DNA of 64,000 nucleotides from Patescibacteria group bacterium (GCA_042577045.1 JBHPEK010000002.1:389-64388), one strand, 5' to 3'; shown: positions 1,124 to 33,667, numbered from the stretch's first letter. The notes: generated by a model not told the origin, from the letters alone. Made by a program: numbers and translations.

Positions 1124-1130
1124 ATAAATT

Positions 1131-1808: not shown

Positions 1809-1809
1809 T

Positions 1810-3423: not shown

Positions 3424-3431
3424 GTAAACTT

Positions 3432-6523: not shown

Positions 6524-6530
6524 TAACAAA

Positions 6531-8560: not shown

Positions 8561-8654
8561 GTTCTTGTGGGGGAGTGTGTGGGGGAGTTGCGTATTTTAG
8601 TTGTTTGTGATAGTTTTGAAAAAAACAAAGAACGTTGACATAAGGAGGATATCT

Positions 8655-17794: not shown

Positions 17795-17795
17795 T

Positions 17796-19304
17796 TTAGT
17801 AATTCATTATCAATACCTCGCTTACTTTACCTCTTTTGTCAGCTTTACAGTTGAGCGATCTGTTGGATTCTACTTTTTCAATTTTATAATCCTTATAAAG
17901 AGTATTTATAAATTTGCAGTTGGAATTAGAAAGCATTATTTTTACTCCTTTTTTAGTAAGTTTGTTTATTAAGGTCTTTAAGCGTTCCTGATCCTCTTTA
18001 AAAAATTTTTCTTTTGTATATCGAGTAAAATTAGAATATTCCGAAATTGGATGATAGGGCGGATCAAGATAAACAAAATCGTCCTTTTTGGCTCCCTGAA
18101 GTGTTTTTTCAAAATCATCACATTTTATATCAGCCTCTTTAAGAATTTTGCTATCAGCTTTTATTGTTCCTTCGTCGCATATTAATCGATTTAAAGAACT
18201 ACCGATTGGAACATTGAATTGACTTTTTTTATTAACGCGATAAACACCATTAAACCCTGCTTGATTTAAATAAATCATGCGAGCAGCAATCTCTGCACTG
18301 TTTAATTCGTTGAAAATATTTATCTCGCGATCGAGTACACGAATTTTCATATATAATTCTTTTGAATGACGCTTTTTTAATTCTTTCAATAATTTAATTA
18401 CTTCTTCTGGATTGTCTCTAATTCCTTCGCAGGTCTTAATAAGTTCTAAGTTATTATCGTTGAGAACGGCCTTGTTTGGTTTTAAGTAAAAATACATTGC
18501 TCCGCCTCCCAAAAAGGGTTCATAAAAAGTATTGAATTTTGTGGGGAGAAATTTTTTGTATTGAGAAATCATTCCCCGTTTTCCTCCAACCCATTGAAGA
18601 AATGGCTTAATTTCTTTTTTTGTATCACTGGTTATTCTTCTCGCATGACTTGTGTAAGGGAATCGATAAATAATGTCTGCGAGTATTTCGATTTCATCTT
18701 TTTTAATTTCGAGGTTTCTAATTATGTTTATTACCACACCTCTTATTTCCACATCGGTTCTAAAGAAGGGGAGCATGGCTTGATTCATTGGCTGGAGTCT
18801 GATTCTGTCTTTTTCTTTGTATATTTTTTTTAGCGTTGCTTGGTTGTTGTCAATAATGGCCACAACTGTCTGGCCGTTATCTGCAGTTTTTTGTTCTTTA
18901 ATTACGACTGTGTCTCCGTCAAAAATTCCTTCTTCAATCATACTATCGCCCTTAACGCGTAGAGCGTAATGCTTACCCGAAGCGCTTAAGGTATTTTTTG
19001 CTACAGATATTGTTTCGCCAGGAATTTCTATGGCTTCTATTGGTTCACCAGCCGAGATGGTTCCAAGTAGTGGAATTTCTAGGATTGTTTTTGTTTCCAT
19101 TAGTTCAATAGATCGGGCGTGGCCTTTATTTTGTTTGATGTAGCCCTTTGTATCCAAAGCAGAAAGATGTTGGTGGACTGTTGGTTTTGATAACTTAAAC
19201 TTTTTTCCTGTTTCCTCGAGAGTAGGAGAGAATCCATTCTTTTCCTGAAAAGATTTTATGAAGTCTAGAACATTTTTTTGCTTCTTGGTAAGTGGTGTTG
19301 TCAT
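17796..19304 (-). CDS. Fusion protein: LexA-like repressor (winged HTH plus S24 peptidase) N-terminal to an E. coli Dam-like N6-adenine methyltransferase.
   Basis: N-terminal part: KQKNVLDFIKSFQEKNGFSPTLEE...SKPTVHQHL (LexA DNA-binding domain), then LLGTISAGEPIEA...RVKGDSMIEEGIFDGDTVVI and ATLKKI (S24 Ser/Lys dyad). C-terminal part: FLQWVGGKRG, EPFLGGGA, LNQAGFNGVYRVN...FNVPIG and YLDPPY, which align with E. coli Dam. Confidence 0.7.
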   Translation of the reverse strand: MTTPLTKKQKNVLDFIKSFQEKNGFSPTLEETGKKFKLSKPTVHQHLSALDTKGYIKQNKGHARSIELMETKTILEIPLLGTISAGEPIEAIEIPGETISVAKNTLSASGKHYALRVKGDSMIEEGIFDGDTVVIKEQKTADNGQTVVAIIDNNQATLKKIYKEKDRIRLQPMNQAMLPFFRTDVEIRGVVINIIRNLEIKKDEIEILADIIYRFPYTSHARRITSDTKKEIKPFLQWVGGKRGMISQYKKFLPTKFNTFYEPFLGGGAMYFYLKPNKAVLNDNNLELIKTCEGIRDNPEEVIKLLKELKKRHSKELYMKIRVLDREINIFNELNSAEIAARMIYLNQAGFNGVYRVNKKSQFNVPIGSSLNRLICDEGTIKADSKILKEADIKCDDFEKTLQGAKKDDFVYLDPPYHPISEYSNFTRYTKEKFFKEDQERLKTLINKLTKKGVKIMLSNSNCKFINTLYKDYKIEKVESNRSLNCKADKRGKVSEVLIMNY

Positions 19305-19990: not shown

Positions 19991-20683
19991 ATGAACAACT
20001 CTGTATCAGTTGTAATTCCAGCTTTGAACGAGGATCAAACCTTAGAAAAAGTGACTGTAAATTTAGATGCTTTTTTAAAAAAAGGTGGTTTTGACTATGA
20101 AATAATAATTGTTGATGATGGCTCAACAGACAAAACTGGTCAAATTGCCGACCAATTGATGTCTCAAAATGAAAGAGTTAGAACACTACACAACACCAAA
20201 AATATGGGCTTTGGTTACGCTTTTAAAAGGGGGATTGAAAATGCTTCAAAGACATGGGCAACTCTTGTTACTGCAGATGATGAAGTAGAAATAGAAGACA
20301 TACCACTTTTTCTTCCCCATGCAGAAAAATCGGATATTATTATTGGCTATATAAACAATAAGTGGATAAGATCAAGGATGCGTAGATTTTTGTCGTGGGG
20401 TTTCAGGACTACCGTAAGAATATTATTTAAAATGAATTTTGAAGGTATCAATGGCATGCCATTCTATAGGGTTTCTGAAGTTAATAAACTAGACATTATG
20501 TCTGACGATTTTAGTATTCAAGCTGAGATTTTAGTTAAAGGAGCTAAGAAAGGTTTGCGGGTTGGTAAGTTCGGGTATCGTATTAAGCCTCGTCTTGCTG
20601 GTGAGGCCAAAGCAACACAACCTAAGCATATATGGAGAGCCCTTGTTTCAACTATGAAGTTGTGGCAGGATATAAAAAAGTAA
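19991..20683 (+). CDS. GT2 family glycosyltransferase (polyprenol-phosphate sugar synthase-like).
   Basis: VSVVIPALNE and IIIVDDGSTDKT motifs. About 230 aa. Confidence 0.7.
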   Translation: MNNSVSVVIPALNEDQTLEKVTVNLDAFLKKGGFDYEIIIVDDGSTDKTGQIADQLMSQNERVRTLHNTKNMGFGYAFKRGIENASKTWATLVTADDEVEIEDIPLFLPHAEKSDIIIGYINNKWIRSRMRRFLSWGFRTTVRILFKMNFEGINGMPFYRVSEVNKLDIMSDDFSIQAEILVKGAKKGLRVGKFGYRIKPRLAGEAKATQPKHIWRALVSTMKLWQDIKK

Positions 20684-20738
20684 ATGTTTTCCGCCGAAGG
20701 CGGACAGGTTTGAAAATAGAATAACGGAGGTTGTAAAC

Positions 20739-21806
20739 ATGAATTTACAGTTATCAGGCAACAAATTACTTTATCACCTTGACGCTTTAAGGAAGTGGCA
20801 AGAAGGTCGGGATTTTTATCCCCTAAATTTAGAGATTGGTCCCACTTCGGCTTGTAATGTTAGGTGTGTTCATTGTTACGTTCAACATCTAGAGCACAAA
20901 CGAGTATATTTACCAGATGATGCTTATCTGAATTTGATTACGGATATTATCACAGCAAAGATTAAAGCGATTGTTTTTTGTGGAACTGGTGAACCTCTTT
21001 TGCACAAGAAAACACCCGAAGCAATAGTTTTGGCTGAACAGGGTGGCATTGATGTTGGCATGATAACAAATGGAACATTGCTTACACCTAGTGTTGCCAA
21101 ACAAATTTTGCCCAAAATGACATGGATGCGTTTCAGCATTTTAGGGATAAAAGAGGAGACATATAATAAGCTTCATGGAATAAAAGGAAAAATATGGGAA
21201 AGGTTATATTCTAATCTGGAAGAAGCTTCTCGCTTGAAAAGAGAGAATGGGTATAAAGTTACTTTCGGCGTTTCCTGTGCTTTAATGCCAGAAAATGGGC
21301 ACGAGATTCATCTAATGGCAAAAAAATTTAGTGATTTAGGTTTTGATTATTTTGTGATTAGACCCGTTGGGCAAGATATGGCACATGCCATAGTTGCAGA
21401 TACGGATCTTTCCAAAAGGTTTGAAAAGGAATTGGAAATGGCTGAAAATTATTCTTCAGACACCTTTAAAGTTGTTGTTAGAAGAGAACTATTTGGTTAT
21501 GAAGAGGATCAGGAAACCAAAAGACATTATGAAAAGTGTTTAGCTCTGCCATTTCTTGCTTGCGTTGATGCCGATGGTTCTTTGTACACCTGCAATGGTC
21601 GTTGGGGGGAAGAAGATTATACTTACGGCAATATTAATCAGAAATCTTTTTTAGATATCTGGAATTCACCCGAACATAAGAAAAAAATGAAGAACTTAAT
21701 GGCTACAACAGATGTTAAAACATGCGGGATTGTATGTCGCCAGAATAGTATGAATGAATTACTCCAGCAAATTTCCGATATTCCCGACCATGTGAATTTC
21801 CTATGA
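20739..21806 (+). CDS. Radical SAM protein with a SPASM/twitch C-terminal domain. Paralog of 11427..12530.
   Basis: CNVRCVHC motif. C-terminal CLALPFLACVDADGSLYTCNG...CGIVCRQ. The stop overlaps the next start. Confidence 0.7.
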   Translation: MNLQLSGNKLLYHLDALRKWQEGRDFYPLNLEIGPTSACNVRCVHCYVQHLEHKRVYLPDDAYLNLITDIITAKIKAIVFCGTGEPLLHKKTPEAIVLAEQGGIDVGMITNGTLLTPSVAKQILPKMTWMRFSILGIKEETYNKLHGIKGKIWERLYSNLEEASRLKRENGYKVTFGVSCALMPENGHEIHLMAKKFSDLGFDYFVIRPVGQDMAHAIVADTDLSKRFEKELEMAENYSSDTFKVVVRRELFGYEEDQETKRHYEKCLALPFLACVDADGSLYTCNGRWGEEDYTYGNINQKSFLDIWNSPEHKKKMKNLMATTDVKTCGIVCRQNSMNELLQQISDIPDHVNFL

Positions 21807-22375
21807 TGAATTTTACTTTTGAACATGTTTCCGGTTCTTGTAAATATCATCGGGATATAGGGCGGGTGTATACTTTTAAAGACTTAGTTCCTGAAGGGCT
21901 TTGTCCGCATGCATACTTTGTTGCTTATCCATATTGCTTGGGTTTATTACATGAGGCAAAGTTTAGCTGGATGAAAAATATAGATGAAAATACAGTAATA
22001 GCTCAATGTCCAGCTCCGTCAAATCCTATTGTTATGAAAATTTGGCGAGACTTAATTCCAAAAGAAAAAAGAAAAACAGACAAGGATGACGACAGATATA
22101 ACATCTTTATTGAACTAGTAGAGAAGTTGGAAGATTCTACAAAAGTTTATAAAAGTTGTCAGAATTGCGCTCAAACAATGAAAGTAGAAAGAAAATGGGA
22201 GTTTAACAAAGGTCAACTTGCTGGTATTTGTCCAGCGGCGTTTAATCAAATGTTTCCCTACCTTGTGGCGCTAGAAAATGGTGGGCATCTTGATTGGCAA
22301 AATAAAGATGGAAGTGTTACATTGCCTTGCCCAGACAATATTAGTAAGGTTAATTTCTTAGTTAAAGTAGTATAG
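21803..22375 (+). CDS. Small Cys-rich protein with a duplicated G-[LI]-C-P-x-A-[FY]...PY motif, translationally coupled to the SPASM radical SAM protein (possibly TIGR04076-like).
   Basis: GLCPHAYFVAYPY and GICPAAFNQMFPY, plus CQNC and LPCP. ATGA overlap with the upstream gene. Confidence 0.4.
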   Translation: MMNFTFEHVSGSCKYHRDIGRVYTFKDLVPEGLCPHAYFVAYPYCLGLLHEAKFSWMKNIDENTVIAQCPAPSNPIVMKIWRDLIPKEKRKTDKDDDRYNIFIELVEKLEDSTKVYKSCQNCAQTMKVERKWEFNKGQLAGICPAAFNQMFPYLVALENGGHLDWQNKDGSVTLPCPDNISKVNFLVKVV

Positions 22376-22390
22376 CACAACGAAATTCAA

Positions 22391-22427
22391 AAAGAGTCAA
22401 CATTGTTTGGCTCTTTTTTTGATGTTA
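22391..22427 (+). repeat. Copy 2 of the 37-nt intergenic element.
   Basis: Identical 37-mer to 11344..11380. Confidence 0.7.
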
Positions 22428-22474
22428 GTTTTAAGCCAAACAGTCTTTGAAAACAAAATAAAGGAGGTTATAAA

Positions 22475-24001
22475 TTGGAAACTGACAAAATTATATCTCT
22501 AGAAAACTTGATTAAAAAATTAGAGTATATTAAAAAAACAGGTGAAAAAATTATCCACTGTCATGGTTGCTTTGATTTGATACATCCTGGCCACATCAAA
22601 CATTTTCAAGCGGCAAAAAAACTTGGAGATATTTTGGTTGTTACGGTTACTTCGGATAGGCTTGTAAATAAGGGGCCGGGACGACCTGTCTTTAATCAAG
22701 ATTTAAGGATGGAGACAGTTGCGGCAATTGGTTGTGTTGATTTCGTAGTCTTAAATGATGATAGTGATTCAGTTAGTTTGATTACAACACTAAAGCCAGA
22801 CTATTTCGTGAAAGATCAAGAGTTTCAAGAAGCAGCTTGGAATGATCCAGAATCTGCTATTTATAGAGAGCGAATTGCCGTTGAGTCAGTTGGTGGAAAA
22901 TTTCATGCTACTACCGAAATACGTTTTAGTTCTAGTCGTCTTTTGGGTGATTTTTTTGGTACTCAATCTGAATCTGCTGTGGGCTTTTTGAGTTCGTTTC
23001 GCGATAGATACGCACCAGAAGAAATTATAGAAAGATTTGAATTGCTGAAGAATTTGAAAGTTTTAGTTATTGGCGATGCTATCATAGATGTTTATTCGTA
23101 TGTTGACCCAATGGGTAAATCCACGAAAGCTAATGATGTTATTGCCTGCAACTATTTATCTGAAGAAACTTTTGCCGGTGGCATAATGGCATGCGCTAAT
23201 CATCTTGCTGGTTTTTGCGAGCAAGTTGATATGTTAACATGTCTTGGAAAAAAAGGGCGTTCTTACCATGATTTTATCGTCAGTAATTTAAAAGATAATG
23301 TGAGTCCTCTTTTTTTGTTCAGAGAGGATGCGCCTACTGTTTGCAAAAGGCGGTTTATAGATGAACCTTTTCTAAACAAAATATTTGAACTTTATTATTT
23401 TGACGATCGCATGGTTTTCGAAGATGTTGAGAATGAAGCGCTAGAGGTGTTGCAGAATATTCAAGATTATGATCTTGTCTTGGTGTCTGACTTTGGTCAT
23501 GGCTTTTTAAGTCCTGAGTTGATTAACTTGATCTGCCAAAAATCTAATTTTTTGGCTCTCAATGTTCAAACCAATACTGGTAATTTTGGTTACAACTTGG
23601 TAACAAAGTATCCTCGAGCAGATTTTGTTTGTATTGATAGGCCGGAAGTTTCTTTGGCCTGTCACAAAAAAGGCGGTAACTACGAAGAAATGCTGTCGTT
23701 TTTGAGAAAAAAATTGAGCTGTCAAAACATAATTATGACTGGTGGACATGAAAGTACTTGGACTCTTGGTCCTGAGGGTTTTGGGCAGGTGCCAATTTTT
23801 TCGTCTAAAGTTGTTGATACTGTTGGTGCTGGGTGTGCTTTTTTATCGGTAGTTTCGCCGTGTGCTTTTTGGGGATGGCCTACCGAATTATTGGCTTTTG
23901 TTGGAAATGTTGTTGGCGCTTTGGCGGTTGGTATTGTTGGCAACCGTTCTTCTGTTGAGCCAAAAGATTTCTTTCGGTTCCTTACTACTCTATTGAAATA
24001 A
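22475..24001 (+). CDS. Bifunctional cytidylyltransferase-like nucleotidyltransferase (N-terminal) plus PfkB-family sugar kinase (C-terminal). HldE-like but with reversed domain order.
   Basis: N-terminal HCHGCFDLIHPGHIKHF...ILVVTVTSD resembles RfaE domain II/TagD. C-terminal VLVIGDAIIDVY and DTVGAGCAF match PfkB motifs. TTG start after AAGGAGG. Confidence 0.65.
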   Translation: METDKIISLENLIKKLEYIKKTGEKIIHCHGCFDLIHPGHIKHFQAAKKLGDILVVTVTSDRLVNKGPGRPVFNQDLRMETVAAIGCVDFVVLNDDSDSVSLITTLKPDYFVKDQEFQEAAWNDPESAIYRERIAVESVGGKFHATTEIRFSSSRLLGDFFGTQSESAVGFLSSFRDRYAPEEIIERFELLKNLKVLVIGDAIIDVYSYVDPMGKSTKANDVIACNYLSEETFAGGIMACANHLAGFCEQVDMLTCLGKKGRSYHDFIVSNLKDNVSPLFLFREDAPTVCKRRFIDEPFLNKIFELYYFDDRMVFEDVENEALEVLQNIQDYDLVLVSDFGHGFLSPELINLICQKSNFLALNVQTNTGNFGYNLVTKYPRADFVCIDRPEVSLACHKKGGNYEEMLSFLRKKLSCQNIIMTGGHESTWTLGPEGFGQVPIFSSKVVDTVGAGCAFLSVVSPCAFWGWPTELLAFVGNVVGALAVGIVGNRSSVEPKDFFRFLTTLLK

Positions 24002-24011
24002 GGAGAATGCA

Positions 24012-25937
24012 ATGAGACAACAAAAGCTACTGGATCTTTTTAAAGAAATTTATTTGATTCGTCGAGTAGAAGAAAGGGTAATTGAACTTGCTAAGGAAGG
24101 ATATGTTAATCCATTGGTTCATTTATCTATTGGGCAAGAGGCTTGTGCCGTTGGTATGTGTCAGGCCTTGAAGCAGATAGATTATGTTTGGAGTAATCAT
24201 AGATGCCATGCTCATTATTTGGCCAAAGGTGGAAATCTTGCGCGGATGTTTGCTGAACTTGCTGGAAAAGAAAACGGTTGTGCTGGTGGGTGGGGAGGTT
24301 CCATGCATTTAGTTGATCCTGCTGTTAATATGATGGGATCGTCCTCAATTGTGGGAAGTAGCATTCCTCTAGCAGCTGGTTCTGCTTTGGCTTCTAAATT
24401 GAGAGAAGATGAGAGGGTTTCTGTTGTTTTTATGGGAGATGGCGCAGTTGAAGAAGGCGCTTTTTGGGAAACACTCAACTTTTCTGTTGTCCACAACTTG
24501 CCGATTATATTTTTCTGTGAGAATAATTTGTATGCCACGCATCTGCATATTTCTAAGCGTCAACCAAAAGGAGAGATTATAGATAGAGTTGGCTCTTTTG
24601 GTATTAAAACTTTTTCTGTTGATGGAAATGATGTGGAGGCAGTTTATCAAAAAGCCACAGAGGCAGTATCTGTTGCCAGAGGTTGCGTTCCAGTTTTTAT
24701 TGAAGCTAAAACTTACAGATGGAGAGAGCATTGGGGTTTTGGCGAGGATGATAGTCTAGGTTATCGGAGTCCCGAAGAAATTGCTAATTGGAAAGAAAAA
24801 TGTCCTATCAAACTTTTGGAAGAAAAAATTCCTTTAAAAGAAATTACTTGTACAAAAAAAGCAATAAGCAAGAAAATTGATCAGGCATGGCTAGGAGCTG
24901 TTACTGAGGAAAATGTTGACATTGTTGCTAAAAAAGAACGAAATTTTACTGTTCACAGTTCAGAAAGGGAATTAAGTTATCGGGAGGCAGTGGAGGAAGC
25001 TTATCTTCAAGCTATGGAGGCAGACCCAGAAGTTTTTCTTTTGGGGGAAGGGGTGGATGGTATTGCTGGTATTTATGGAACCACGCTTCATGCTTTCAGC
25101 AAGTTCGGCCCCAATAGAGTTATTGACACTCCGTTGAGCGAGGTGGCTATTACAGGAATAGCAATTGGTTCGGCTATTGCTGGGATGAGACCAGTTATTA
25201 TGCATCAAAGAATGGATTTTCTTTTACTTGCATTAAGTCAAGTTGTTCACACGGCTGCCTCTTGGAAAAGTATGACTGGTGGCCGGTTAAGTTGTCCGGT
25301 AACCATAAGGGCTTATATTGCCAGAAAGCCTGGCGAAGGAGCCCAGCATACTGGCGCTTGGCACTCTATATTTGGTCATATTCCTGGATTAAAAACAGTA
25401 ATGCCTTCTAATTCTTATGACGTAAAGGGTTTGACTGTCTCTGCAATTTTTGACGATGATCCGGTATTGATTTTAGAACACAGAGACCTGAACGAGAGTA
25501 AATCTCTAGTGCCGGACGGTTTATACAAAGTTCCTATCGGTGAGTCAAGAATTATACGAGAGGGTATGGGTATTACAATTGTTTCTGTCTCAGCGGAAAT
25601 AGAAAAAGTGCTTGAAGCTGCAGGTTCCTTGGGTGAAAAAAATATTTCTGTTGAAGTGATAGATCTTGTAAGCGTAAGGCCAATTGATAAAAGGACAATT
25701 ATTTCTTCGGTTGAAAAAACGGGCAAGTTACTAGTTGTTGATACCGGGTTTCCAACTTATGGTGTTAGCGCTGAAATATGCGCAATAGTTGTAGAAGAAG
25801 TGGGAATGAAGAAGAAGTCAGTTAGAAGGATGGGAACGCTAGAATTCCCTGCGCCAGCATCCAAGTTACTTTTAGGTAATTATCACCCAAGTGTTGGGCA
25901 GATTATTACCACTGTTCTTGAGATGGTCGGAAGTTAA
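24012..25937 (+). CDS. Fused 2-oxoacid dehydrogenase E1 alpha+beta (TPP-dependent, pyruvate-dehydrogenase-E1-like).
   Basis: Alpha part: HLSIGQEA, GCAGGWGGSMHL and MGDGAVEEG (TPP motif). Beta part: SYREAVEEAYLQAMEADPEVFLLGEGV and a transketolase C-like end. Confidence 0.75.
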   Translation: MRQQKLLDLFKEIYLIRRVEERVIELAKEGYVNPLVHLSIGQEACAVGMCQALKQIDYVWSNHRCHAHYLAKGGNLARMFAELAGKENGCAGGWGGSMHLVDPAVNMMGSSSIVGSSIPLAAGSALASKLREDERVSVVFMGDGAVEEGAFWETLNFSVVHNLPIIFFCENNLYATHLHISKRQPKGEIIDRVGSFGIKTFSVDGNDVEAVYQKATEAVSVARGCVPVFIEAKTYRWREHWGFGEDDSLGYRSPEEIANWKEKCPIKLLEEKIPLKEITCTKKAISKKIDQAWLGAVTEENVDIVAKKERNFTVHSSERELSYREAVEEAYLQAMEADPEVFLLGEGVDGIAGIYGTTLHAFSKFGPNRVIDTPLSEVAITGIAIGSAIAGMRPVIMHQRMDFLLLALSQVVHTAASWKSMTGGRLSCPVTIRAYIARKPGEGAQHTGAWHSIFGHIPGLKTVMPSNSYDVKGLTVSAIFDDDPVLILEHRDLNESKSLVPDGLYKVPIGESRIIREGMGITIVSVSAEIEKVLEAAGSLGEKNISVEVIDLVSVRPIDKRTIISSVEKTGKLLVVDTGFPTYGVSAEICAIVVEEVGMKKKSVRRMGTLEFPAPASKLLLGNYHPSVGQIITTVLEMVGS

Positions 25938-25950
25938 TATAAAAAACAAA

Positions 25951-25977
25951 AAGGGATTGCTTCGGCAATCCTTTTTT
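25951..25977 (+). terminator. Intrinsic terminator.
   Basis: AAGGGATTGC-TTCG-GCAATCCTT followed by TTTTTT. Confidence 0.6.
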
Positions 25978-26058
25978 ATTTTGTCAATATTGCCTTGTTT
26001 TTAATGGTTGTGGTAATTTAGATTTAGATAAGAACTTTGAAAAAGGTGGTGATACCGT

Positions 26059-27582
26059 ATGTCAGAAGAAAAGATAAAAAGTCTAGAAGAATTAAGACCC
26101 ATAATTGACGACCTTAAAAAAAGAGGAAAGAAGATTGTTTTGAGTCATGGAGCTTTTGACTCAATTCAACATGGTCATCGTCATTATCTGAGAGAATCCA
26201 AGAAATTAGGAGATATTCTTGTTGTTTCTGTGGTGGCTGATAAATTTGTCCGGAAAGGGCTAACTAATCCTATCTTTAATCAAGATGTTCGTATGGAAAC
26301 CATTGTATCTTTTGAGTTTGTTGACTTTGTTGTGCTTTGTGAAGAGTTGGGTGCTTGGGACATTATCCAAGGTATTGAACCAGATATTTATGCCAAAGGT
26401 ACAGATTCCAAAAGACAGCTAGACAATCCTGCTAGCGGTCTAAGCAAAGAACGCAATGCAGTAGAAAGACATGGGGGTGAGATTTGCTTTACGCAGTCTT
26501 TTCCTATTCATAGTGTGAATATTTTAAATAGGTACTCGAACAATATACCTGAAGATATTTTAGTTTTTCTCGGGGAATTTGGTGAAAAATACAACATGGC
26601 TGATATAACAGAATTTTTAGATAGATTGTGTGGCTTAAAAGTTTTAGTTATTGGAGAGACGGTTGTAGACGAGTATCGTTTCATGTCTCCTTTGGGAAAA
26701 CCATCAAAAGCAACTGTATTGTGTGCGCAATATAAGAACAAGGAGATATTTGCCGGCGGTGCAATAGTATTAGCTAATCATATAGCCAGCATTTGTTCTA
26801 ATGTTGATTTGATTAGTTCTTTAGGAAGAAAGGATTCTCAAGAGAGTTTTATAAGGAGTTCCTTAAAATATAATGTTACTCCATACTTTCTTTTTCAAGA
26901 TGATATACCAACCACTGTTAAGCGCCGATTTATCGATCAAACCAGTGGCTCTAAGTTGTTTGAAGAGTATATATATGAAAAAAAGGCTCTTTTGGTGAGT
27001 GATGAAAAGAAACTAGCCCAACACCTTAAGAAGTCTTTGCCAAAGTATGACTTGGTAATTGTTCTAGACTATGGACAAGGTTTTTTTTCTGAGAATGTTA
27101 TAGATGTTTTGTCTAAAGAATCCAAATTTTTAGCCGTTAATGCTCAGACAAACAGTGGGAATACTGGATTTAATTATGTAACTAAATATCCAGAAACTGA
27201 TTTTGTTTGTATTGATGAAATGGAAGCTAGGCTTGCTGTGCAAGACGATGAAATGGGTTTAAAAAAAGTAATTGGATCTATTTGTGAAAAAACCGGAGCA
27301 GATAAAATTATTGTTACCTTGGGGGGTGCTGGGTGTTTGTCCTATGAAAGAAATGGCAAATTTGTAAAAACTCCTTCTTTTGCTTTCAGCGTATTAGACC
27401 CAGTTGGCGCTGGCGATACTTTTTTAGCGTTTTCGTCTCCGTGTGTGGCAAGTAACTTTCCAATGGAAGTAGTTTCTTTTATTGGTTCTGTTGCTAGTGC
27501 CGTAGCCGTCGGTATTTTGGGGAATAAGTCTTCTGTAAGTAAAGAAGAGTTCCTAAAAGTTGCTGGCAGTCTTTTAGAATAA
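26059..27582 (+). CDS. Bifunctional nucleotidyltransferase (N-terminal) plus PfkB sugar kinase (C-terminal). Paralog of 22475..24001.
   Basis: LSHGAFDSIQHGHRHYL...ILVVSVVAD, VLVIGETVVDEY and DPVGAGDTF. Confidence 0.65.
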   Translation: MSEEKIKSLEELRPIIDDLKKRGKKIVLSHGAFDSIQHGHRHYLRESKKLGDILVVSVVADKFVRKGLTNPIFNQDVRMETIVSFEFVDFVVLCEELGAWDIIQGIEPDIYAKGTDSKRQLDNPASGLSKERNAVERHGGEICFTQSFPIHSVNILNRYSNNIPEDILVFLGEFGEKYNMADITEFLDRLCGLKVLVIGETVVDEYRFMSPLGKPSKATVLCAQYKNKEIFAGGAIVLANHIASICSNVDLISSLGRKDSQESFIRSSLKYNVTPYFLFQDDIPTTVKRRFIDQTSGSKLFEEYIYEKKALLVSDEKKLAQHLKKSLPKYDLVIVLDYGQGFFSENVIDVLSKESKFLAVNAQTNSGNTGFNYVTKYPETDFVCIDEMEARLAVQDDEMGLKKVIGSICEKTGADKIIVTLGGAGCLSYERNGKFVKTPSFAFSVLDPVGAGDTFLAFSSPCVASNFPMEVVSFIGSVASAVAVGILGNKSSVSKEEFLKVAGSLLE

Positions 27583-27612
27583 AAAGTCAAATCATATAGA
27601 TTTGACTTTTTT
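27583..27612 (+). terminator. Intrinsic terminator.
   Basis: AAAGTCAAATC-atata-GATTTGACTTT plus a T-run. Confidence 0.6.
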
Positions 27613-27706
27613 AGTTTTGTGTTATATTTTCTTATTAACTGACGATTAGAGAACATTGAAAACCAACCCTGCTTCGCCAAGGCTTTGCAGGGCAAGGGAG
27701 GACTTT

Positions 27707-29356
27707 ATGAAAATTGCCTTTGTGATTTACAATGTGCTAAGCACAGAACGCATGGGAATTATGTTGATGTCTTCTTTGGTCAAACAGAAATTTCCGCACG
27801 CCGAAGTTGAACTTTTTGTTTATACAGATGGAAGACTAAAAGAACAAATATTATCGTTCAAGCCAGATATCGTGGCATATAGTGCTTCGACAGGAGAGCA
27901 TGTTCACTATCTGACTATTGCTAGAGAAGTAAAAAACCTAGGCAAAGTTTTGGGGAAAAAGATCTTTCAAGTTATGGGTGGTCCTCATTGCACATTTGCT
28001 CCAGAGACCTTATTGGGCAGTAGTTTAGATGCTGTTGGGGTTGGAGAGTGTGACGATGCCTGGGTAGAACTCCTCGAAAGTCTAGAAATAGGGGGAAATA
28101 TAAGTAACATACCTGATATAGTAACTCGGGGAAATTTTAACGAGATCGTTTTTCCGGCTAATATACAGAGCGAAGGTTATGTTCGATATCGCGTTACCAA
28201 CATTAGACCCAGAACATGTCGAGATCCAGAAAATCACCAAACTTGTCTTGATCATTTACCATTTTTGGATTGGGACCTGTATCTTTCCAGAACCAATTTC
28301 GAACAAAGCAACAGTCTTCTGAAAAGAACTATAATGACAAGACGCGGGTGTCCGTTTCAGTGTACTTATTGTTTCAACAGAGTTTTTAATGCTATTCACC
28401 CAGGAGAAAGACCGGTTCACAACTATAGCATAGAGCGGGTGATTCAGGAATGTGAATGGGTTACTGCCAATTATCCTACCGAGTTTTGGAAGTTTTATGA
28501 TGACATAGCATTCTTCTCGTCTAGCGGACAAGAGGGGGAGAGATTAAGAGAATTTTCTGAAAAATGGAAACGGCGCATCAACCTTCCTTTCTTTGTTTTA
28601 ACTAGGGCTGATTTGGTTGCTAAAGATCCAGATATTTTGAGAATTTTGAAAGATGCCGGTTGCCAGTCTTGTACTATGTCTATTGAGGGTGGAAATGAAT
28701 ATGTAAGAAACAATATTCTAGAAAGATCCATGTCGGATGAAGATGTTGTTTTTGCGCATCGTTTGGCTTGGGATTTAGGAATAAAAACTTTTAGTAATGT
28801 TATCTTTTCGGTCCCTGTCAAAAGTACTGAAATAGAGAAACATAATCTTCCACGAAAATCGATCAATCGTGACATAGAATCTGTTAAACTTTGTTTAGAC
28901 TCGCGGGTTCATTTTGTAGAATGCCCTATGTTGTTTCCCTATCCAGGCACCAAACTAGGAGAATATTGCAAAGAAGAGGGTTTTTTTGATGGTGATGCAG
29001 AAAAATTAGACCAAAGCTATCAAACTCTATCGCCATTTGATGTTTTAAGCGAAAAGGAAAAGAGATGGTCGCAAAACTTAGCCTTTTTATCTATGTGGTG
29101 TGTTTTTCTTGGAAGTCGTCAAAACAAGCTGGTTCGTAATTTTATTTCCCCATTGTTTTTTAGATTTACTACTAGCTTCCTTATCAAAATACCAAGTGTT
29201 TGGTTTTCAAAATTGTATTTTATTTTGTATGCAGTTCTTCAGCAGTATTTATGTGGTGCTGAGATTTACAGACCAAAATACAGAACCCCATTAAAAACAA
29301 TGACCAATGGATTTTGGGGAAGGCTTAGATATGAATTTAAAAAACAATTTCCATAG
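27707..29356 (+). CDS. Cobalamin(B12)-binding radical SAM protein.
   Basis: MKIAFVIYN start after AGGGAGG. KPDIVAYSASTG...MGGPHCT (B12 domain). RRGCPFQCTYC motif. Confidence 0.75.
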   Translation: MKIAFVIYNVLSTERMGIMLMSSLVKQKFPHAEVELFVYTDGRLKEQILSFKPDIVAYSASTGEHVHYLTIAREVKNLGKVLGKKIFQVMGGPHCTFAPETLLGSSLDAVGVGECDDAWVELLESLEIGGNISNIPDIVTRGNFNEIVFPANIQSEGYVRYRVTNIRPRTCRDPENHQTCLDHLPFLDWDLYLSRTNFEQSNSLLKRTIMTRRGCPFQCTYCFNRVFNAIHPGERPVHNYSIERVIQECEWVTANYPTEFWKFYDDIAFFSSSGQEGERLREFSEKWKRRINLPFFVLTRADLVAKDPDILRILKDAGCQSCTMSIEGGNEYVRNNILERSMSDEDVVFAHRLAWDLGIKTFSNVIFSVPVKSTEIEKHNLPRKSINRDIESVKLCLDSRVHFVECPMLFPYPGTKLGEYCKEEGFFDGDAEKLDQSYQTLSPFDVLSEKEKRWSQNLAFLSMWCVFLGSRQNKLVRNFISPLFFRFTTSFLIKIPSVWFSKLYFILYAVLQQYLCGAEIYRPKYRTPLKTMTNGFWGRLRYEFKKQFP

Positions 29357-29440
29357 AAACAGTAAAGAAATAAAAATCCGTCTTTTAGTGGGCGGATTTT
29401 TTTGACTTGAATTACTAGTTTGTTAAGTTATGATATTAAG

Positions 29441-30187
29441 ATGACAAAATTTGATAATTCTATTTCCATAATTATGCCTGCCTATAACGAGGCCAAAGGT
29501 ATTTATGGTGCATATGAAAGTACTAAACGATCAATACAAAAAGCTGGAATTGGTGATTATGAAATTTTAATTACGACCAATATATCTCCTAGTGGCACTC
29601 ATGATGGCACTCCAGATGTAGTAGACAAAATAGCCAAAAATGATTCTCACGTAAAACATATTTTTCATAACAAATATGCTGGTCTAGGTTTTAAATATAG
29701 AGACGCTCTGAACAAAGCTCAAAAAAAGTACGCCATGATGGTTCCCGGTGATAATGACACCATAGAAAGTTCCCTAGTTAATATTTTAAAAAATGTGGGA
29801 AAATTTCCAGCTATTGTTGTCTATACCTCTAATTCCAAAGCGAGACCTTTTTACATTAGGGCTGTTTCTAGATCTTTTGTTTTTCTTTGCAATTTGTTGT
29901 TTGGCTTAAGAATGAAATATTATAATGGTATGTGTGTTTTTCCAATTGAACTTCTAAAAATAGTTCCTACGACGGCAAATAATCCAGCTTATATGGCAGA
30001 AACGTTAATCTACTTATTGAAATCTGGTTTAAAATATACAGAGATGCCACAAGAAATTAAGTACACGCCTCTTCCCGGAAAGACTTTTCGTTTGAAGAGT
30101 GTTTGGGATGTGTTGATCACCCTAACTTTGTTGTTTTGGAAGATTAATATAAAAAGGGTTAGACTTGATATTTCTAAGTGGATTTAG
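29441..30187 (+). CDS. GT2-like glycosyltransferase.
   Basis: ISIIMPAYNEAKGI motif. The start could be 29420. Confidence 0.5.
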   Translation: MTKFDNSISIIMPAYNEAKGIYGAYESTKRSIQKAGIGDYEILITTNISPSGTHDGTPDVVDKIAKNDSHVKHIFHNKYAGLGFKYRDALNKAQKKYAMMVPGDNDTIESSLVNILKNVGKFPAIVVYTSNSKARPFYIRAVSRSFVFLCNLLFGLRMKYYNGMCVFPIELLKIVPTTANNPAYMAETLIYLLKSGLKYTEMPQEIKYTPLPGKTFRLKSVWDVLITLTLLFWKINIKRVRLDISKWI

Positions 30188-30250
30188 TTGACACGTGACA
30201 ACATTTAACTTACTTTAATATCAGATGTTTCGTTGAAAAAAGGAGTCCTT

Positions 30251-31093
30251 ATGCGATACAAAGTAACAAGGAAAGATTGTCAGAGAGTTATAGGAGAATT
30301 GATTAGGATTTTCAAAGAAGTAGAGTTGTCAAATGAAATAGATTTTTTGGTTTATGGAACCTATTTTGGCAAATGGCGAAACGGGTTAAGCGATCTTGAT
30401 GGTGTTTTAAGTTTTTCAAAATCTTTTATCGATCCACAACTACGATTCAAAATATTAGCTTTTCAGATGAAGATGAGAGAGCTATATGAGAATATAGAAT
30501 TTTTAAAAACTGGTCATTTTTTTGCTGATGTTTTTGTTTTGGATAAAGAATTGGTTGAAGACGGCCGTTTTATGATATACGACAAGGGGTTTATCGACAG
30601 AATTGTAAATGGCCAAACCAAGCAAGCTGTATTATTTGGAGAAGACTTTGTAAGAAAATTAAATCCTGTATCTTTAAGGCATCAGGACGAATTTGAGCTG
30701 GCTGCGGGTGTTCAGAAACTAAGGAATTATTTATTGTTTGAAATTCCTAAGCCAGTGAACATTATAGACTTAAATTGTGCCATAGGAGTGACAAAGTTTT
30801 TCAAAATTCTTCCCAGAACAGTTGCTATTATTTTAGGAGAATCCTTGATTAGCACTATTGAAGAAATGACAAAACTTCGAAATTACTTGGAAGAAATAGA
30901 TTATAGTTATCTAGAAAGATTTTTTGAAGCTAGTTTTGATCCTGATTTTATTGTTGAACACATACGATCATGGCATGAGATTGGTAATGAAGCTTTCTTA
31001 GACTATCTTGTCTGTTTTGAGAAAGTGCTACAAGCTGTTATCAAAAACGAATCAATGTTAAGTTTGGGGGGAAACCGTGGAATTAATGAATGA
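30251..31093 (+). CDS. Nucleotidyltransferase-domain protein (Pol-beta-like minimal NTase fold).
   Basis: LVYGTYFGKWRNGLSDLDGV (hG[GS]...DhD). AAGGAG RBS before the ATG at 30251. Confidence 0.4.
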   Translation: MRYKVTRKDCQRVIGELIRIFKEVELSNEIDFLVYGTYFGKWRNGLSDLDGVLSFSKSFIDPQLRFKILAFQMKMRELYENIEFLKTGHFFADVFVLDKELVEDGRFMIYDKGFIDRIVNGQTKQAVLFGEDFVRKLNPVSLRHQDEFELAAGVQKLRNYLLFEIPKPVNIIDLNCAIGVTKFFKILPRTVAIILGESLISTIEEMTKLRNYLEEIDYSYLERFFEASFDPDFIVEHIRSWHEIGNEAFLDYLVCFEKVLQAVIKNESMLSLGGNRGINE

Positions 31094-31757
31094 GAGGAGG
31101 CTTGTCGGTCTTTGGCGACATTTCTTTAAAAAAGAAGCAAGTGTTGTTTTAATGAGACATGCTCCAAAATATGGTTCAGATTCTAGCGGTTTGTCTAAAG
31201 AGGGTCGATTGTTTGCCCAAAAATATGGTTGCGTGTTGGCTAGAGCAAATTATTTGAAAGATATTACATTTGTAGACACAGATAAACAGAGAACAACCGA
31301 TACACTTAATTTGATGTTTAATATCTCGGGTGGCGCTATGCGTTTTAACGATTTAAATTCTCCTCGAATTTCTAGTTTTGTTCAGAGGCAGGTTGAGGAC
31401 TTGCATATGAAAGTGGGTCGTTTTAGAAATTATTTTTTGAACCACACATATTATTTTCTTGAAAGATTGGGTGGGGAATATGATGCAGAGCATTTACATA
31501 AGGTTGTGGCTTTGCGAATGGCAACTGGTATTATTAAGTTGTTTGAGTTTGAACAAAACCTAGTTGTCTATTGTGGGCACTCTCCTTCTATTGAAGTTGG
31601 GTGTGAAAAGTTACTAGGAAAGAATTTATCTGAGATTGGTGGCTTTTTAAATCCCCTGGACTCTATACATCTTAAAAAGACCAATAACCAAATTGAGTTT
31701 GTTGGTAGGATTAATCCTATTTTGGGATATGTAGATCTTGAAAGTGAAAATTATTAA
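31077..31757 (+). CDS. Histidine phosphatase (phosphoglycerate-mutase-like) family protein.
   Basis: VVLMRHAPK is an RHG-like motif. About 226 aa. GTG or ATG start is uncertain. Confidence 0.35.
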   Translation: MELMNERRLVGLWRHFFKKEASVVLMRHAPKYGSDSSGLSKEGRLFAQKYGCVLARANYLKDITFVDTDKQRTTDTLNLMFNISGGAMRFNDLNSPRISSFVQRQVEDLHMKVGRFRNYFLNHTYYFLERLGGEYDAEHLHKVVALRMATGIIKLFEFEQNLVVYCGHSPSIEVGCEKLLGKNLSEIGGFLNPLDSIHLKKTNNQIEFVGRINPILGYVDLESENY

Positions 31758-31814
31758 AGGGAGACCAAGGGCCTCCCTTTTTTGTTTTATGTTTATATAA
31801 TAAGATTAAATTAA

Positions 31815-33665
31815 ATGTGCGCAATAAATGGCTTTGATTTTGCCGACCAAAAATTGATTTTAAAAATGAACGCTATCACTAAGCATCGAGGCCCAGATGA
31901 TAGCGGTTTTTATGTTGGAAATAACATTTCTCTTGGGCACAATAGACTCTCTATTATTGATCTTTCCAAGCAAGGGCGTCAGCCGTTGTGGAACAAAGAC
32001 GAAACAAAGTGCATAGTTTTCAATGGAGAGATTTATAATTTTAGGGAATTAAAAAAAGAACTTGAAAGTACGGGGTATGTATTTTATTCAAAAACAGACA
32101 CAGAAGTTGTTCTTAGTTTGTTTGAAGAATTTGGAGAAAAATGTTTAGAAAAATTAAATGGAATTTTTGCTTTTGCAATTTTGGACACCCAAAGTGGCGA
32201 ATTATTTTTGGCGCGTGATCGGCTTGGCATAAAACCACTTTATTATTATCATAAAGCAGGAAAATTTATTTTTTCGTCTGAAATAAAAGCAATATTTGAA
32301 CATAATGTTAAAAGAGAAGTGAACTTGGAGTCTTTTAATCATTTTTTTCGTTTGCGTTACGTTCCGGCCCCTCTTACGATGTTTAATAATATTTTTAAGT
32401 TACCCGCTGGTCATTTTGCGAAATTTTCTAATGGGAATTTGGAAATTAGAAAATACTGGGATATTGAAGATTTTGAGAACTTAGACTGTTCAAGGCAAGA
32501 AATTGTTCAGAAAATTAATTTTTTGATGAAAGATTCTGTAAAACGACAGCTCATTTCAGATAGGCCAGTCGGGGTGTTTTTAAGTGGCGGAATAGATTCT
32601 ACTTCAGTTTTGGGGATTGCGGATGAAGTTTTGGGTGGAGAAGTCAAAACATATTCTATTGGGTTTGATATATCGGTTGAGTCAGAAAAATTTAATGCTG
32701 ATTTTAAAATTGCCAGAAGAACAGGTAAATATTATAAAACAGATCATCACGAGTTCTTGTTTTCTGAAAAAAATTTTTTAGAGAACATAGACGATGCAGT
32801 TTTTTTCAATGATGAACCACTTGCTGATCCAATTAGAGTGGTAAACCTTTTTCTTGCCAAGGAAGCCAAGAAAGATGTCGCGGTTGTTTTGGGTGGTGAT
32901 GGTGGAGACGAACTTTTCGGTGGTTATCGCAGGTACTATTTAAGTACCCTAATTGATACCTTTCAGGGTTTTCCTTCTTTGGCTCAAAAACCATTATTAT
33001 TTTTAATCAAAAATTTTTCTAAAAACAAAACTGCGATAGAGAAGCTAAAATTACCGTTGGGACACAAGCGGTATTTGGCCTTTATGATCCAGAAAAACGA
33101 TGTTTTAGAGAGGGTTCTTAAAAAAGACTTTTTCCAGGAGAATTTGGTTGATTCTTTTTTTGAAAAAAATTATCAAAATTGTTTATTAACCAAAGACTCG
33201 GCCAAGCAAATGATGTATTATGATGTAAAAAATTGGCTTTTGGAGGAGTCATTAATGAGAACTGATAGAATGACTATGGGGCATGGTTTAGAGGGTAGAG
33301 TTCCTATTCTAGATCATCGTCTCGTAGAATTGGCTTTTAAAATCCCAACCTCCTTAAAAATAAAAAACAGACATGGCGGTAAGGATATCTTTAAAGAGGC
33401 GATGGAAGATTATTTACCTAAGTATGTTTTGAATCAGCCGAAAAGAGGATGGTTTTCTCCATCAGCAAAATGGCTAAGGTTTGGATTAAAAGATTTTGCT
33501 TATGAGATTTTATCCGAGAACTATAATTCAGAAACTGTTAAATATTTTAATTTTGATTCAATTAAAAAAATACTAGACGATCATATTTCCAAAAAAGAAT
33601 ATAATGCAACAATTATTTGGATGTTAATTTCTTTCCAGCTTTGGCATAAAAAATTTATAAAATAA
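31815..33665 (+). CDS. asnB: Asparagine synthase (glutamine-hydrolysing)-like amidotransferase.
   Basis: MCAING (Ntn Cys2), GIFAFAILD, LARDRLGIKPLYY and VFLSGGIDS (PP-loop). Confidence 0.85.
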   Translation: MCAINGFDFADQKLILKMNAITKHRGPDDSGFYVGNNISLGHNRLSIIDLSKQGRQPLWNKDETKCIVFNGEIYNFRELKKELESTGYVFYSKTDTEVVLSLFEEFGEKCLEKLNGIFAFAILDTQSGELFLARDRLGIKPLYYYHKAGKFIFSSEIKAIFEHNVKREVNLESFNHFFRLRYVPAPLTMFNNIFKLPAGHFAKFSNGNLEIRKYWDIEDFENLDCSRQEIVQKINFLMKDSVKRQLISDRPVGVFLSGGIDSTSVLGIADEVLGGEVKTYSIGFDISVESEKFNADFKIARRTGKYYKTDHHEFLFSEKNFLENIDDAVFFNDEPLADPIRVVNLFLAKEAKKDVAVVLGGDGGDELFGGYRRYYLSTLIDTFQGFPSLAQKPLLFLIKNFSKNKTAIEKLKLPLGHKRYLAFMIQKNDVLERVLKKDFFQENLVDSFFEKNYQNCLLTKDSAKQMMYYDVKNWLLEESLMRTDRMTMGHGLEGRVPILDHRLVELAFKIPTSLKIKNRHGGKDIFKEAMEDYLPKYVLNQPKRGWFSPSAKWLRFGLKDFAYEILSENYNSETVKYFNFDSIKKILDDHISKKEYNATIIWMLISFQLWHKKFIK

Positions 33666-33667
33666 TT

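Follow-up and report, generated by a model that had tools for sequence, protein, structure and literature searches.

Three adjacent genes in a 64-kb stretch of DNA from a Patescibacteria (Candidate Phyla Radiation, CPR) group bacterium (GCA_042577045.1, JBHPEK010000002.1:389-64388; GC content ~35%), referred to here as the window in its full length, are best explained as the core of a nucleotide-sugar biosynthesis module within a very large surface-glycan island. Two of them are HldE-like paralogues in which a nucleotidyltransferase (NTase) domain precedes a PfkB sugar kinase domain, and they flank a fused alpha/beta E1 enzyme of the pyruvate dehydrogenase (PDH) type, which uses thiamine diphosphate (ThDP). 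The active-site losses of the two paralogues are complementary, and the E1 belongs to a lineage that lacks an E2 partner. Judging from the sequences, we consider it an evenly balanced proposition that the E1 performs an E2-independent two-carbon (C2) step in a nucleotide-sugar pathway whose kinase and NTase roles are split between the paralogues. The three open reading frames (ORFs) lie where an earlier reading of the sequence alone (hereafter, the sequence-only reading) had placed them, with the same lengths:

22475-24001, + strand: ORF A, 508 aa, TTG start; NTase domain followed by a PfkB domain lacking the catalytic Asp
24012-25937, + strand: ORF B, 641 aa; fused E1 alpha+beta comprising E1_dh (14-299), Transket_pyr (320-493) and Transketolase_C (510-630)
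26059-27582, + strand: ORF C, 507 aa; deviant NTase-like domain, then a PfkB domain whose GAGD is intact

Pfam and NCBIfam domain searches bore out the order of domains in both HldE-like proteins, with the NTase first and PfkB second. The Pfam scans covered all window ORFs of at least 150 aa and some smaller ones; they place CTP_transf_like and PfkB at residues 30-154 and 195-493 of ORF A and at 31-135 and 194-486 of ORF C (domain E-values <=1e-9), PfkB (PF00294) scoring 51.3 bits in ORF A and 57.9 bits in ORF C against a gathering score of 25.8. Residues 4-120 of both ORFs match positions 320-438 of the 475-position NCBIfam HldE model, that is, its C-terminal NTase half, and residues ~190-498 match the rfaE kinase-domain model, so that the order is reversed relative to HldE. 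Both proteins miss the 521-bit cut-off of the HldE equivalog (NF008454 / PRK11316) by a wide margin (118.3 bits for ORF A and 143.9 for ORF C). The best PDB matches are HldA (4e84) for the kinase and 5x9q, a 'putative cytidylyltransferase' that we take to be HldC, for the NTase. ORF A also weakly matches (E 5e-5) the cytidylyltransferase domain of a PDB 5x3d chain, deposited as phosphoenolpyruvate phosphomutase and presumably Fom1. This match, together with the vitamin B12-binding radical S-adenosylmethionine (SAM) genes nearby, made us consider a phosphonate-type logic (Fom1/Fom3-like); no phosphoenolpyruvate mutase was found among the scanned window ORFs. The STTR5 rule for nucleotide specificity (Tang et al.) was set aside, because the motif register in the reverse-order family is too different.

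The sequence-only reading was right that the arrangement is the opposite of that in HldE; as a novelty, however, it does not stand, since it has thousands of relatives and was described in Coxiella in 2018. At least 4,688 relatives of ORF A were found among 8,000 scored candidates, and all 120 of those listed share the architecture, nearly all with a length of ~510 aa. For ORF C, 692 relatives were found, and a profile of its clade recovered 2,814 cluster representatives at E<=1e-30. ORFs A and C show the hallmarks of this family (~510 aa, PF01467 followed by PF00294, full-length homology), which is spread over Patescibacteria, Omnitrophota, Marinimicrobia, Elusimicrobia, Alphaproteobacteria and other taxa. 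The usual neighbour is a GmhA-like SIS isomerase, as in loci of Azospirillum (L003), Omnitrophota (L004), Marinimicrobia (L089) and CPR (L090; related loci are designated by L numbers throughout). Short-chain dehydrogenase/reductase (SDR) epimerases or dehydratases accompany it in L003, L004 and L089; often a member of the GSU2086 family is encoded there too, as in L089 and L090.

One member with a genetic phenotype is CBU0678 of Coxiella burnetii, described as homologous to HldE, with an 'unconventional, reversed domain arrangement' and with Asp455 as its predicted kinase active site (Beare et al. 2018). The gene is needed for phase I lipopolysaccharide (LPS): its truncation and the substitutions P74A and G369R abolish or alter this LPS, and the same authors state that 'The function of CBU0678 is unknown' (Beare et al. 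2018). A 2026 review connects CBU0678 with virenose production. Its neighbours include the phosphoheptose isomerase CBU0674 and two SDRs, and CBU0674, CBU0676, CBU0677 and CBU0678 make up the same gene set as the mainstream cassettes of the family. By residue numbers, P74, G369 and D455 of CBU0678 lie within 3 residues of the invariant P71, G372 and D454 positions here. The reverse-order architecture is thus already known and has a genetic phenotype.

What sets ORF A apart is the state of its kinase domain. The Asp of the GAGD motif, found in 233 of 233 aligned homologues, is replaced by Cys454 (GAGC), encoded by TGT at 23834-23836; two base changes separate this codon from GAY, which excludes a single-base error. 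Two more near-invariant kinase positions are altered (R393S and G427S). The TTG start is backed by alignment of the first residues with the 233 homologues. Of 55 conserved kinase columns the protein keeps 52, and among the conserved NTase columns it deviates at a single one; HPGH and FSSS are both preserved. Since the kinase domain is as similar to the mainstream family as the NTase domain is (49% and 50% identity), it is being maintained, and the idea of a decaying pseudodomain was rejected. The nearest relatives of ORF A (family members P0122-P0128, 55-61% identity) all have GAGD. We propose that ORF A is a nucleotidyltransferase with a catalytically dead, conserved kinase fold, which probably still binds a ligand or a partner.

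ORF C carries the complementary defect. Its GAGD is intact (D453) and aligns with the GAGD of Burkholderia HldA (PDB 4e84), while the first His of the NTase motif HxGH, present in 231 of 233 homologues, has become Gln37 (QHGH; CAA at 26167-26169), and the second NTase motif (RTxGISTT-type) has HSV, within IHSV, where the family has SS[ST]. Twenty-five of the 28 family-conserved positions of the NTase domain are retained. ORF C sits in a CPR-centred subclade (P0002-P0025, 43-54% identity) whose NTase domains are more diverged from the mainstream (33-44% identity) than its kinase domains (41-47%) and in which HxGH is sometimes broken (HHGL, HHGY, RYGH, RYDH). Such features lead us to propose ORF C as the sugar-phosphate kinase of the pathway. 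ORFs A and C share 40% identity over their full length; this low value and their closer relatives in different clades (55-61% and 44-54%) made us reject a recent tandem duplication. The two complete bifunctional enzymes of the sequence-only reading are therefore not supported: ORF A has lost the PfkB catalytic Asp, a kind of loss that the sequence-only reading itself had named as counting against it, and in ORF C, which keeps GAGD, it is the NTase signature that is damaged.

Single losses of this kind are found elsewhere in the family. Among 149 representatives clustered at 50% identity (P0356-P0504), both motifs are intact in 128, the kinase Asp alone is lost in 3, HxGH alone in ~11, and both in none, so that ~10% carry a single dead domain. 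In the 233-homologue alignment and the related loci, the GAGD Asp is absent only from ORF A (Cys) and from the second paralogue of CPR locus L006 (Ser), where a C-type gene is accompanied by a copy with intact HRGH and GAGS, an independent loss. In L008, an 873-aa protein (7405-10026) fuses E1 alpha and E1 beta to an NTase-only domain with intact HSGH; it is encoded directly upstream of a C-type NTase-PfkB gene and downstream of NeuB/NeuC/DegT-type nonulosonic-acid genes. Here the counterpart of ORF A is an NTase domain at the C-terminus of the E1 fusion. In the Woesearchaeota locus L025, genes for E1 alpha, E1 beta, a lone NTase, a SIS protein and a lone PfkB kinase adjoin. Within the window, ORF B starts 10 nt after ORF A, and hairpins lie in the larger gaps:

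22389-22418, 25948-25977, 27581-27611 and 31767-31779: hairpins with A-rich and T-rich flanks that resemble bidirectional terminators, from a consensus scan

These hairpins occupy the ~60-120-nt gaps around the ORF A-E1 pair, ORF C and a 226-aa ORF further downstream; the scan as a whole returned 16 sites, against 10.8 +/- 3.5 in shuffled sequences. With the first three at their present positions, ORF A and the E1 look like one unit and ORF C like a unit of its own. Overall, we infer from these sequence features that ORF C would act as the kinase and ORF A as the nucleotidyltransferase beside the E1, the dead kinase fold being kept for binding or assembly.

ORF B is a fused E1 alpha/beta in a single frame, as the sequence-only reading had stated: it aligns end to end with the NCBIfam PDH E1 alpha and beta models and with solved E1 alpha and beta chains, and its Pfam domains have E-values <=1e-9. 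The ThDP motif GDG-X26-NN (142-172) and Glu377 (in DTPLSE), both conserved across 77 E1s, are in place, as are the conserved His99, His240 and His446; with these residues intact, ORF B should be an active ThDP decarboxylase or carboligase. Its scores fall under all E1 equivalog cut-offs (276.9 vs 393.85 for TIGR03182, 272.3 vs 321 for NF006667 and 252.4 vs 454 for NF008854). No lipoyl, E3-binding, 2-oxoacid_dh or pyridine-nucleotide-disulfide oxidoreductase domain was found among window ORFs of at least 150 aa, and no E2 among window ORFs of at least 80 aa or in L001, L006, L007, L008, L024, L025 and L028.

For comparison, we surveyed one genome per GTDB species; relatives with E1 alpha and beta either fused or encoded side by side turned up at 80 loci. 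Fusion of E1 alpha and beta as such is common among them. Of the 77 non-cluster loci, 46 contain an E2-like ORF; the gene directly downstream of the E1 was scanned in 65 and proved to be a complete E2 in 34. The GTDB E1s most similar to ORF B come from Woesearchaeota (L025, 51% identity), Pseudobdellovibrionaceae (L024, 44%) and Oligoflexia (L028, 43%), and these three are the only GTDB E1 loci that also hold NTase-PfkB genes (or split NTase and PfkB genes) and SIS; radical SAM/SPASM genes accompany them in L024 and L028. In a neighbour-joining tree of 77 E1s, the eight cluster-linked sequences form one group (bootstrap 57/100). Its sister is another E2-less group (L009, L030, L033, L034, L036), in which the module consists of an SDR, a B12-binding radical SAM protein, a GHMP kinase, E1 alpha, E1 beta, a DegT aminotransferase, an NTP_transferase, GT2 glycosyltransferases and an ABC-2 exporter. 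The E2-less lineage thus always comes with a sugar kinase and an NTase, drawn from three different combinations of protein families.

The same division is visible in four acidic positions that are nearly invariant in E2-linked E1s (D in 98%, E in 100%, D in 98% and E in 100%) and read G347, T578, K601 and L621 in ORF B. At the first three, other residues stand in all members of the two E2-less clades; at the fourth, most cluster-linked E1s have lost the acidic residue and the sister group retains it. Mapped on human and Geobacillus E1 beta, three of the four fall in the beta C-terminal domain, and we read the replacements as a putative loss of an E2-docking surface. The non-canonical nature of this E1, already suspected in the sequence-only reading, is upheld by the absence of E2 and E3 among scanned window ORFs, by the sub-cut-off scores and by membership in an E2-less clade found in sugar-activation clusters, and on the same grounds a canonical PDH or branched-chain 2-oxoacid dehydrogenase E1 was rejected.

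All three genes belong to a co-directional run on the + strand (19991-34723), which reads GT2, radical SAM/SPASM, TIGR04076 protein, ORF A, E1, ORF C, B12-binding radical SAM, GT2, a 286-aa protein with a pol-beta signature, a 226-aa protein without assignment, an AsnB-like amidotransferase and GT4. The immediate neighbours are as follows:

19991-20683, + strand: GT2 glycosyltransferase, first gene of the co-directional run
20739-21806, + strand: radical SAM/SPASM protein, weakly similar to radical SAM proteins that act on sugars (DesII) and to W-cofactor and NirJ maturases
21803-22375, + strand: TIGR04076-family protein with two repeats, overlapping the stop codon of the radical SAM/SPASM gene
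27656-29356, + strand: B12-binding radical SAM protein, 60-67% identity in L001, L006 and L007
29420-30187, + strand: GT2 glycosyltransferase, a CPR-module gene with 47-53% identity in L001, L006 and L007
30233-31093, + strand: 286-aa conserved protein with the invariant pol-beta NTase signature LVYG[TS]..G.WR.GLSDLD ... DVF..D
31077-31757, + strand: 226-aa conserved protein, kept in L001, L006 and L007; RHA...SRT...GHS pattern seen by eye, recalling histidine phosphatases

The last four of these are conserved together with the C-type kinase and the E1 in L001, L006 and L007, and of all partners that the C-type kinase has in CPR loci, the B12-binding radical SAM protein is the best conserved. 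The TIGR04076-family gene was not found in any related locus examined. The 286-aa protein has no Pfam or PDB match by sequence; it may be a minimal NTase or else a phosphotransferase resembling LicD.

A second, related block lies 11 kb upstream and comprises a split transketolase, a GSU2086-family protein, a radical SAM/SPASM protein, an aldo-keto reductase and a B12-binding radical SAM protein. Three of its features are as follows:

8601-9479 (N subunit) and 9476-10414 (C subunit), + strand: split transketolase of the kind seen beside cassettes L004, L089 and L090
10398-11324, + strand: GSU2086-family protein, 352.6 bits against an NCBIfam cut-off of 250
11427-12530, + strand: radical SAM/SPASM protein, closer (37-43% identity) than the one at 20739-21806 to the orthologous E1-adjacent genes of L007 and L008 and the SIS-adjacent gene of L090

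With at least 7,053 members, the GSU2086 family reaches across phyla at 55-70% identity, and its members all carry the annotation 'hypothetical'. In Geobacter sulfurreducens, GSU2086 stands between hldE and gmhA (PMC5585712). Members adjoin a reverse-order HldE-like gene and gmhA in Geobacter, L089 (8888-9859) and L090 (8976-9962), and they adjoin E1 genes in L001 (1520-2512) and L007 (3019-4065), where the gene preceding the E1 is the orthologue of the window copy. PDB profile searches by sequence gave no useful match for this family, nor for the 286-aa protein. The AlphaFold2 (AF2) model of the family member, a confident one (pLDDT 89.5), resembles deoxyhypusine synthase, LOR/SDH proteins and the C-terminal NAD domain of ArgZ/AgrE (Foldseek TM 0.5-0.57, E ~1e-7), and the predicted fold points to a redox or epimerase reaction with NAD in the reverse-order HldE cassettes.

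The left end of the window (398-8560: VTC domain, DUF4956, a protein without assignment, methyltransferase, PMT_2) is syntenic with positions 3839-8995 of the CPR contig L090, which carries an Asp-intact, ORF A-like NTase-PfkB gene together with GSU2086, SIS, radical SAM/SPASM and split transketolase genes. By comparison, the window looks like a rearranged descendant of such an arrangement, without SIS. Given this synteny and the orthology of upstream-block genes with E1-locus genes in L001, L007 and L008, the functional unit probably spans ~8.6-34.7 kb. The remaining window genes encode a Wzx flippase, methyltransferases, more B12-binding radical SAM proteins, a sulfotransferase, a Bac_transf priming transferase and a Wzy_C/TPR protein, a content that identifies a surface-polysaccharide island.

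Of the radical SAM genes found in the island, five encode B12-binding proteins (3432-4853, 13486-15051 on the - strand, 27656-29356, 37827-39290 and 42296-43747 on the - strand), and three further ones, two with SPASM and one without, lie at 11427-12530, 20739-21806 and 44360-45433 (- strand). These genes, together with the lack of any SDR-type dehydratase or epimerase in the scanned island, suggest that radical chemistry replaces NAD-dependent sugar tailoring here.

From these elements we can sketch a pathway of HldE-type activation, in which an anomeric kinase would act on a sugar phosphate and a nucleotidyltransferase would follow. A heptose-type sugar phosphate would be phosphorylated at the anomeric position by ORF C, its distal phosphate would be taken off by a phosphatase without an assigned gene, and the resulting 1-phosphate would be nucleotidylated by ORF A. 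The E1 would then decarboxylate a 2-oxo acid, most likely pyruvate, and move the C2 unit onto a sugar carbonyl, as proposed for the AviB1/B2 and Pau11/12 class (PMC4425429). The radical SAM/SPASM and B12-binding radical SAM proteins would provide the oxidation and C-methylation that SDRs and SAM methyltransferases carry out in aerobes, and the GT2 enzymes would transfer the product. The pathway is probably heptose-type. The particular step in which the E1 adds its C2 unit to the carbonyl of an activated sugar is, on sequence grounds, plausible to us at somewhat less than an even chance.

Several observations weigh against this scheme. No GmhA-like SIS isomerase was found in the 64-kb window by tblastn or Pfam scans, and no sugar-bisphosphate phosphatase was recognised there by Pfam, PDB profile or hhalign searches, so that the heptose assignment rests on relatives. 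Two candidates for the missing phosphatase were considered: the GSU2086-family protein was rejected for its predicted NAD-binding, deoxyhypusine-synthase-like fold, and the 226-aa ORF, as a histidine phosphatase, found no support from Pfam, PDB profile search, BLASTP or hhalign (its single-sequence AF2 model, at pLDDT 33, was unusable). Nor did Pfam scans of the window ORFs reveal an SDR 4,6-dehydratase that could supply a nucleoside diphosphate (NDP)-4-ketosugar acceptor. The sister cassettes have a transketolase as their ThDP enzyme, and transketolase takes sugar phosphates as substrates, not NDP-sugars. The oxidising role given to the radical SAM/SPASM protein is conjecture, and the simple neighbour-joining tree gives the group of cluster-linked E1s a bootstrap value of no more than 57/100. 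As for ORF C, its His-to-Gln change is a single third-base difference (CAA vs CAY) that might be a sequencing error or a tolerated change, which makes this half of the argument weaker; most of its clade retains HxGH, and an 'HST' form of motif 2 is also seen in NTase domains that look active.

The presence of transketolases bears directly on the chief alternative, in which the E1 would join a C2 unit from hydroxypyruvate or pyruvate to an aldose phosphate and so build a longer ketose phosphate before activation; isomerisation (SIS), anomeric phosphorylation (PfkB), dephosphorylation and nucleotidylation would follow, as on an assembly line for higher-carbon sugars. Such a logic is analogous to that of the lincosamide octose route. 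E1 alpha/beta (L001, L007, L024, L025, L028) and split transketolase (L004, L089, L090) do hold equivalent places in cassettes that usually also have a radical SAM/SPASM gene, and the constant company of an anomeric-type kinase and an NTase, from three unrelated family combinations, is needed only if the skeleton is made at the level of the free sugar or sugar phosphate. Against this, glycosylated or NDP-keto sugars are the proposed substrates of those E1 alpha/beta sugar enzymes that have been characterised (PMC4425429), the transketolases may merely supply sedoheptulose-7-phosphate, a pyruvate-derived 1-deoxy-ketose is no substrate for an aldose-ketose isomerase, and the window holds both the split transketolase and the E1, with SIS not found there. 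We regard assembly before activation as possible but unlikely; sequence data do not tell it apart from C2 branching of an activated sugar. The precedent invoked in the sequence-only reading, that E1 alpha/beta pairs add two-carbon branches to sugars, is real (AviB1/B2, Pau11/12; PMC4425429). Its placement of the branch on an NDP-ketosugar fares less well, since the sister cassettes with split transketolase make a role at the sugar-phosphate stage a live alternative, and its NDP-4-ketosugar acceptor, modelled on AviB, lost ground for want of an SDR-type 4,6-dehydratase among the scanned window ORFs.

The other alternatives concern the individual enzymes. That a TagD-family NTase makes a CDP-linked sugar- or polyol-phosphate, which the pol-beta-type protein (30233-31093) or TagF-like enzymes then transfer as a phosphodiester in the manner of teichoic acid, fits either view of the E1. 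PF01467 is indeed the TagD/ECT/CCT family, the weak 5x3d match is to a cytidylyltransferase domain, the pol-beta signature gene is conserved in the module, and a Glyphos_transf gene adjoins SIS in L007. The best family matches are, however, the heptose-1-phosphate adenylyltransferase domain and HldC, no TagF-like gene was found in the window, and the pol-beta-like assignment is one of signature only; we find such a polymer improbable. We think it a little more improbable still that both paralogues are complete bifunctional enzymes activating different sugars, as the sequence-only reading implied. Both domains are full-length and above Pfam thresholds in ORFs A and C, and most conserved positions are kept (52/55 in the ORF A kinase, 25/28 in the ORF C NTase); yet ORF A lacks an Asp that is invariant in 233 homologues and corresponds to the predicted active-site D455 of CBU0678, the Asp was lost independently in L006, and L008 has an NTase-only domain in that role. 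An ordinary catabolic E1 of a pyruvate, acetoin or branched-chain 2-oxoacid dehydrogenase, with E2 and E3 encoded elsewhere, would explain why PDH E1 alpha and beta match best by sequence and why the catalytic residues are retained, including the active-site His, and most fused E1s of other phyla do have an adjacent E2. This we consider very improbable indeed: no E2 or E3 was found among the scanned ORFs of the 64-kb window or in the seven related loci, every equivalog cut-off is missed, the separate E2-less clade has lost acidic residues invariant in E2-linked enzymes, an NTase is fused to the E1 in L008, and ORF B is embedded in a co-directional run of glycan genes.

Returning to our proposal of an E2-independent C2 step with divided kinase and NTase roles, each of its components has known counterparts. 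Both domains of ORFs A and C are homologous to HldE (RfaE) of E. coli and to HldA and HldC of Burkholderia, and the association with a GmhA-like isomerase is shared at the family level; the differences are the reversed order, scores far below 521 bits, one kinase-dead and one HxGH-defective copy, and the fact that neither gmhA nor gmhB was found in the window. AviB1/B2 of avilamycin and Pau11/12 of paulomycin likewise involve an E2-less, E1 alpha/beta-type ThDP protein in a sugar or glycan cluster and are proposed to draw their C2 unit from pyruvate (PMC4425429). Compared by description, those proteins are separate subunits in actinomycete antibiotic clusters, acting on 4-keto sugars made from NDP-hexoses via SDR dehydratases, whereas the window enzyme is fused, accompanied by kinase/NTase and radical SAM enzymes, and SDR-less. 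The sister E1 clade follows the same kinase and NTase logic with different protein families; its GHMP kinase and NTP_transferase, which we take to be HddA/HddC-like, recall the GDP-heptose route, and it has the SDR and DegT genes that the window lacks.

The closest parallel is Coxiella, with a reversed HldE-like protein, phosphoheptose isomerase and SDR neighbours as in the mainstream cassettes, and E1-like genes in the same LPS region as CBU0678. Going by published descriptions, Coxiella has a single, Asp-intact copy, while the window has two copies from different clades with complementary defects, an E1 that is fused and adjacent, and a setting rich in radical SAM genes and devoid of SDRs. 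The Coxiella genes CBU_0686 and CBU_0692 as well as CBU_0693 were described as 'pyruvate dehydrogenase' genes that lie in the LPS (virenose) region and were gained by horizontal transfer, and interpreted as boosting fatty-acid metabolism (PMC5423948). By analogy with the present module, they may instead encode sugar-pathway E1-like enzymes.

The reverse order, E1-like sugar enzymes and fused E1s were each known separately. It is new that two non-sister paralogues on either side of an E1 have lost active-site residues in a complementary way, that such losses recur in L006, L008, L025 and ~10% of family representatives, and that an E2-less E1 lineage is tied to sugar activation by a kinase and an NTase in CPR, DPANN, Bdellovibrionota and several further phyla; new as well is the likely link to the unexplained CBU0678 and 'pyruvate dehydrogenase' LPS genes of Coxiella. 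It is tempting to suppose that a widespread pathway, built from a reverse HldE-like protein, a GmhA-like isomerase, GSU2086, a ThDP C2 enzyme and a radical SAM/SPASM protein, makes a C-branched or chain-extended, heptose-derived nucleotide sugar and is shared by CPR, DPANN archaea, Bdellovibrionota and possibly the virenose/phase I LPS locus of Coxiella, with radical SAM replacing SDR chemistry in anaerobes and the pseudo-enzyme domains serving as obligate partners or scaffolds of the E1. We offer this only tentatively, as rather less likely than not.

The surface glycans by which CPR/Patescibacteria probably attach to host cells are chemically almost uncharted. In Coxiella, the same set of enzymes appears to stand behind a step in phase I LPS, its key virulence determinant; genetics defined this step in 2018, and biochemically it is still unexplained. 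With its E1 fused, E1 and NTase joined in a relative, and kinase and NTase activities that seem already separated in nature, the compact and tractable version described here makes the question directly testable in vitro. If the proposal is true, an E2-independent E1 clade and its radical SAM partners would join the few ThDP enzymes that form carbon-carbon bonds in sugars.

Finally, we would like to mention two minor observations on the window. Scans for tRNA genes and Rfam families over its length returned no match. A restriction-modification-like block (15371-19304) is inserted in the glycan island between the two related blocks. It contains an ORF (15371-16747, + strand) with a weak match to the type IIS family RE_Alw26IDE, a D12 methyltransferase (16733-17794, - strand), and an ORF (17796-19304, - strand) that joins a LexA DNA-binding domain, an S24 peptidase and a D12 N6-adenine methyltransferase, that is, a fusion of a LexA-like repressor with a Dam-type methyltransferase.

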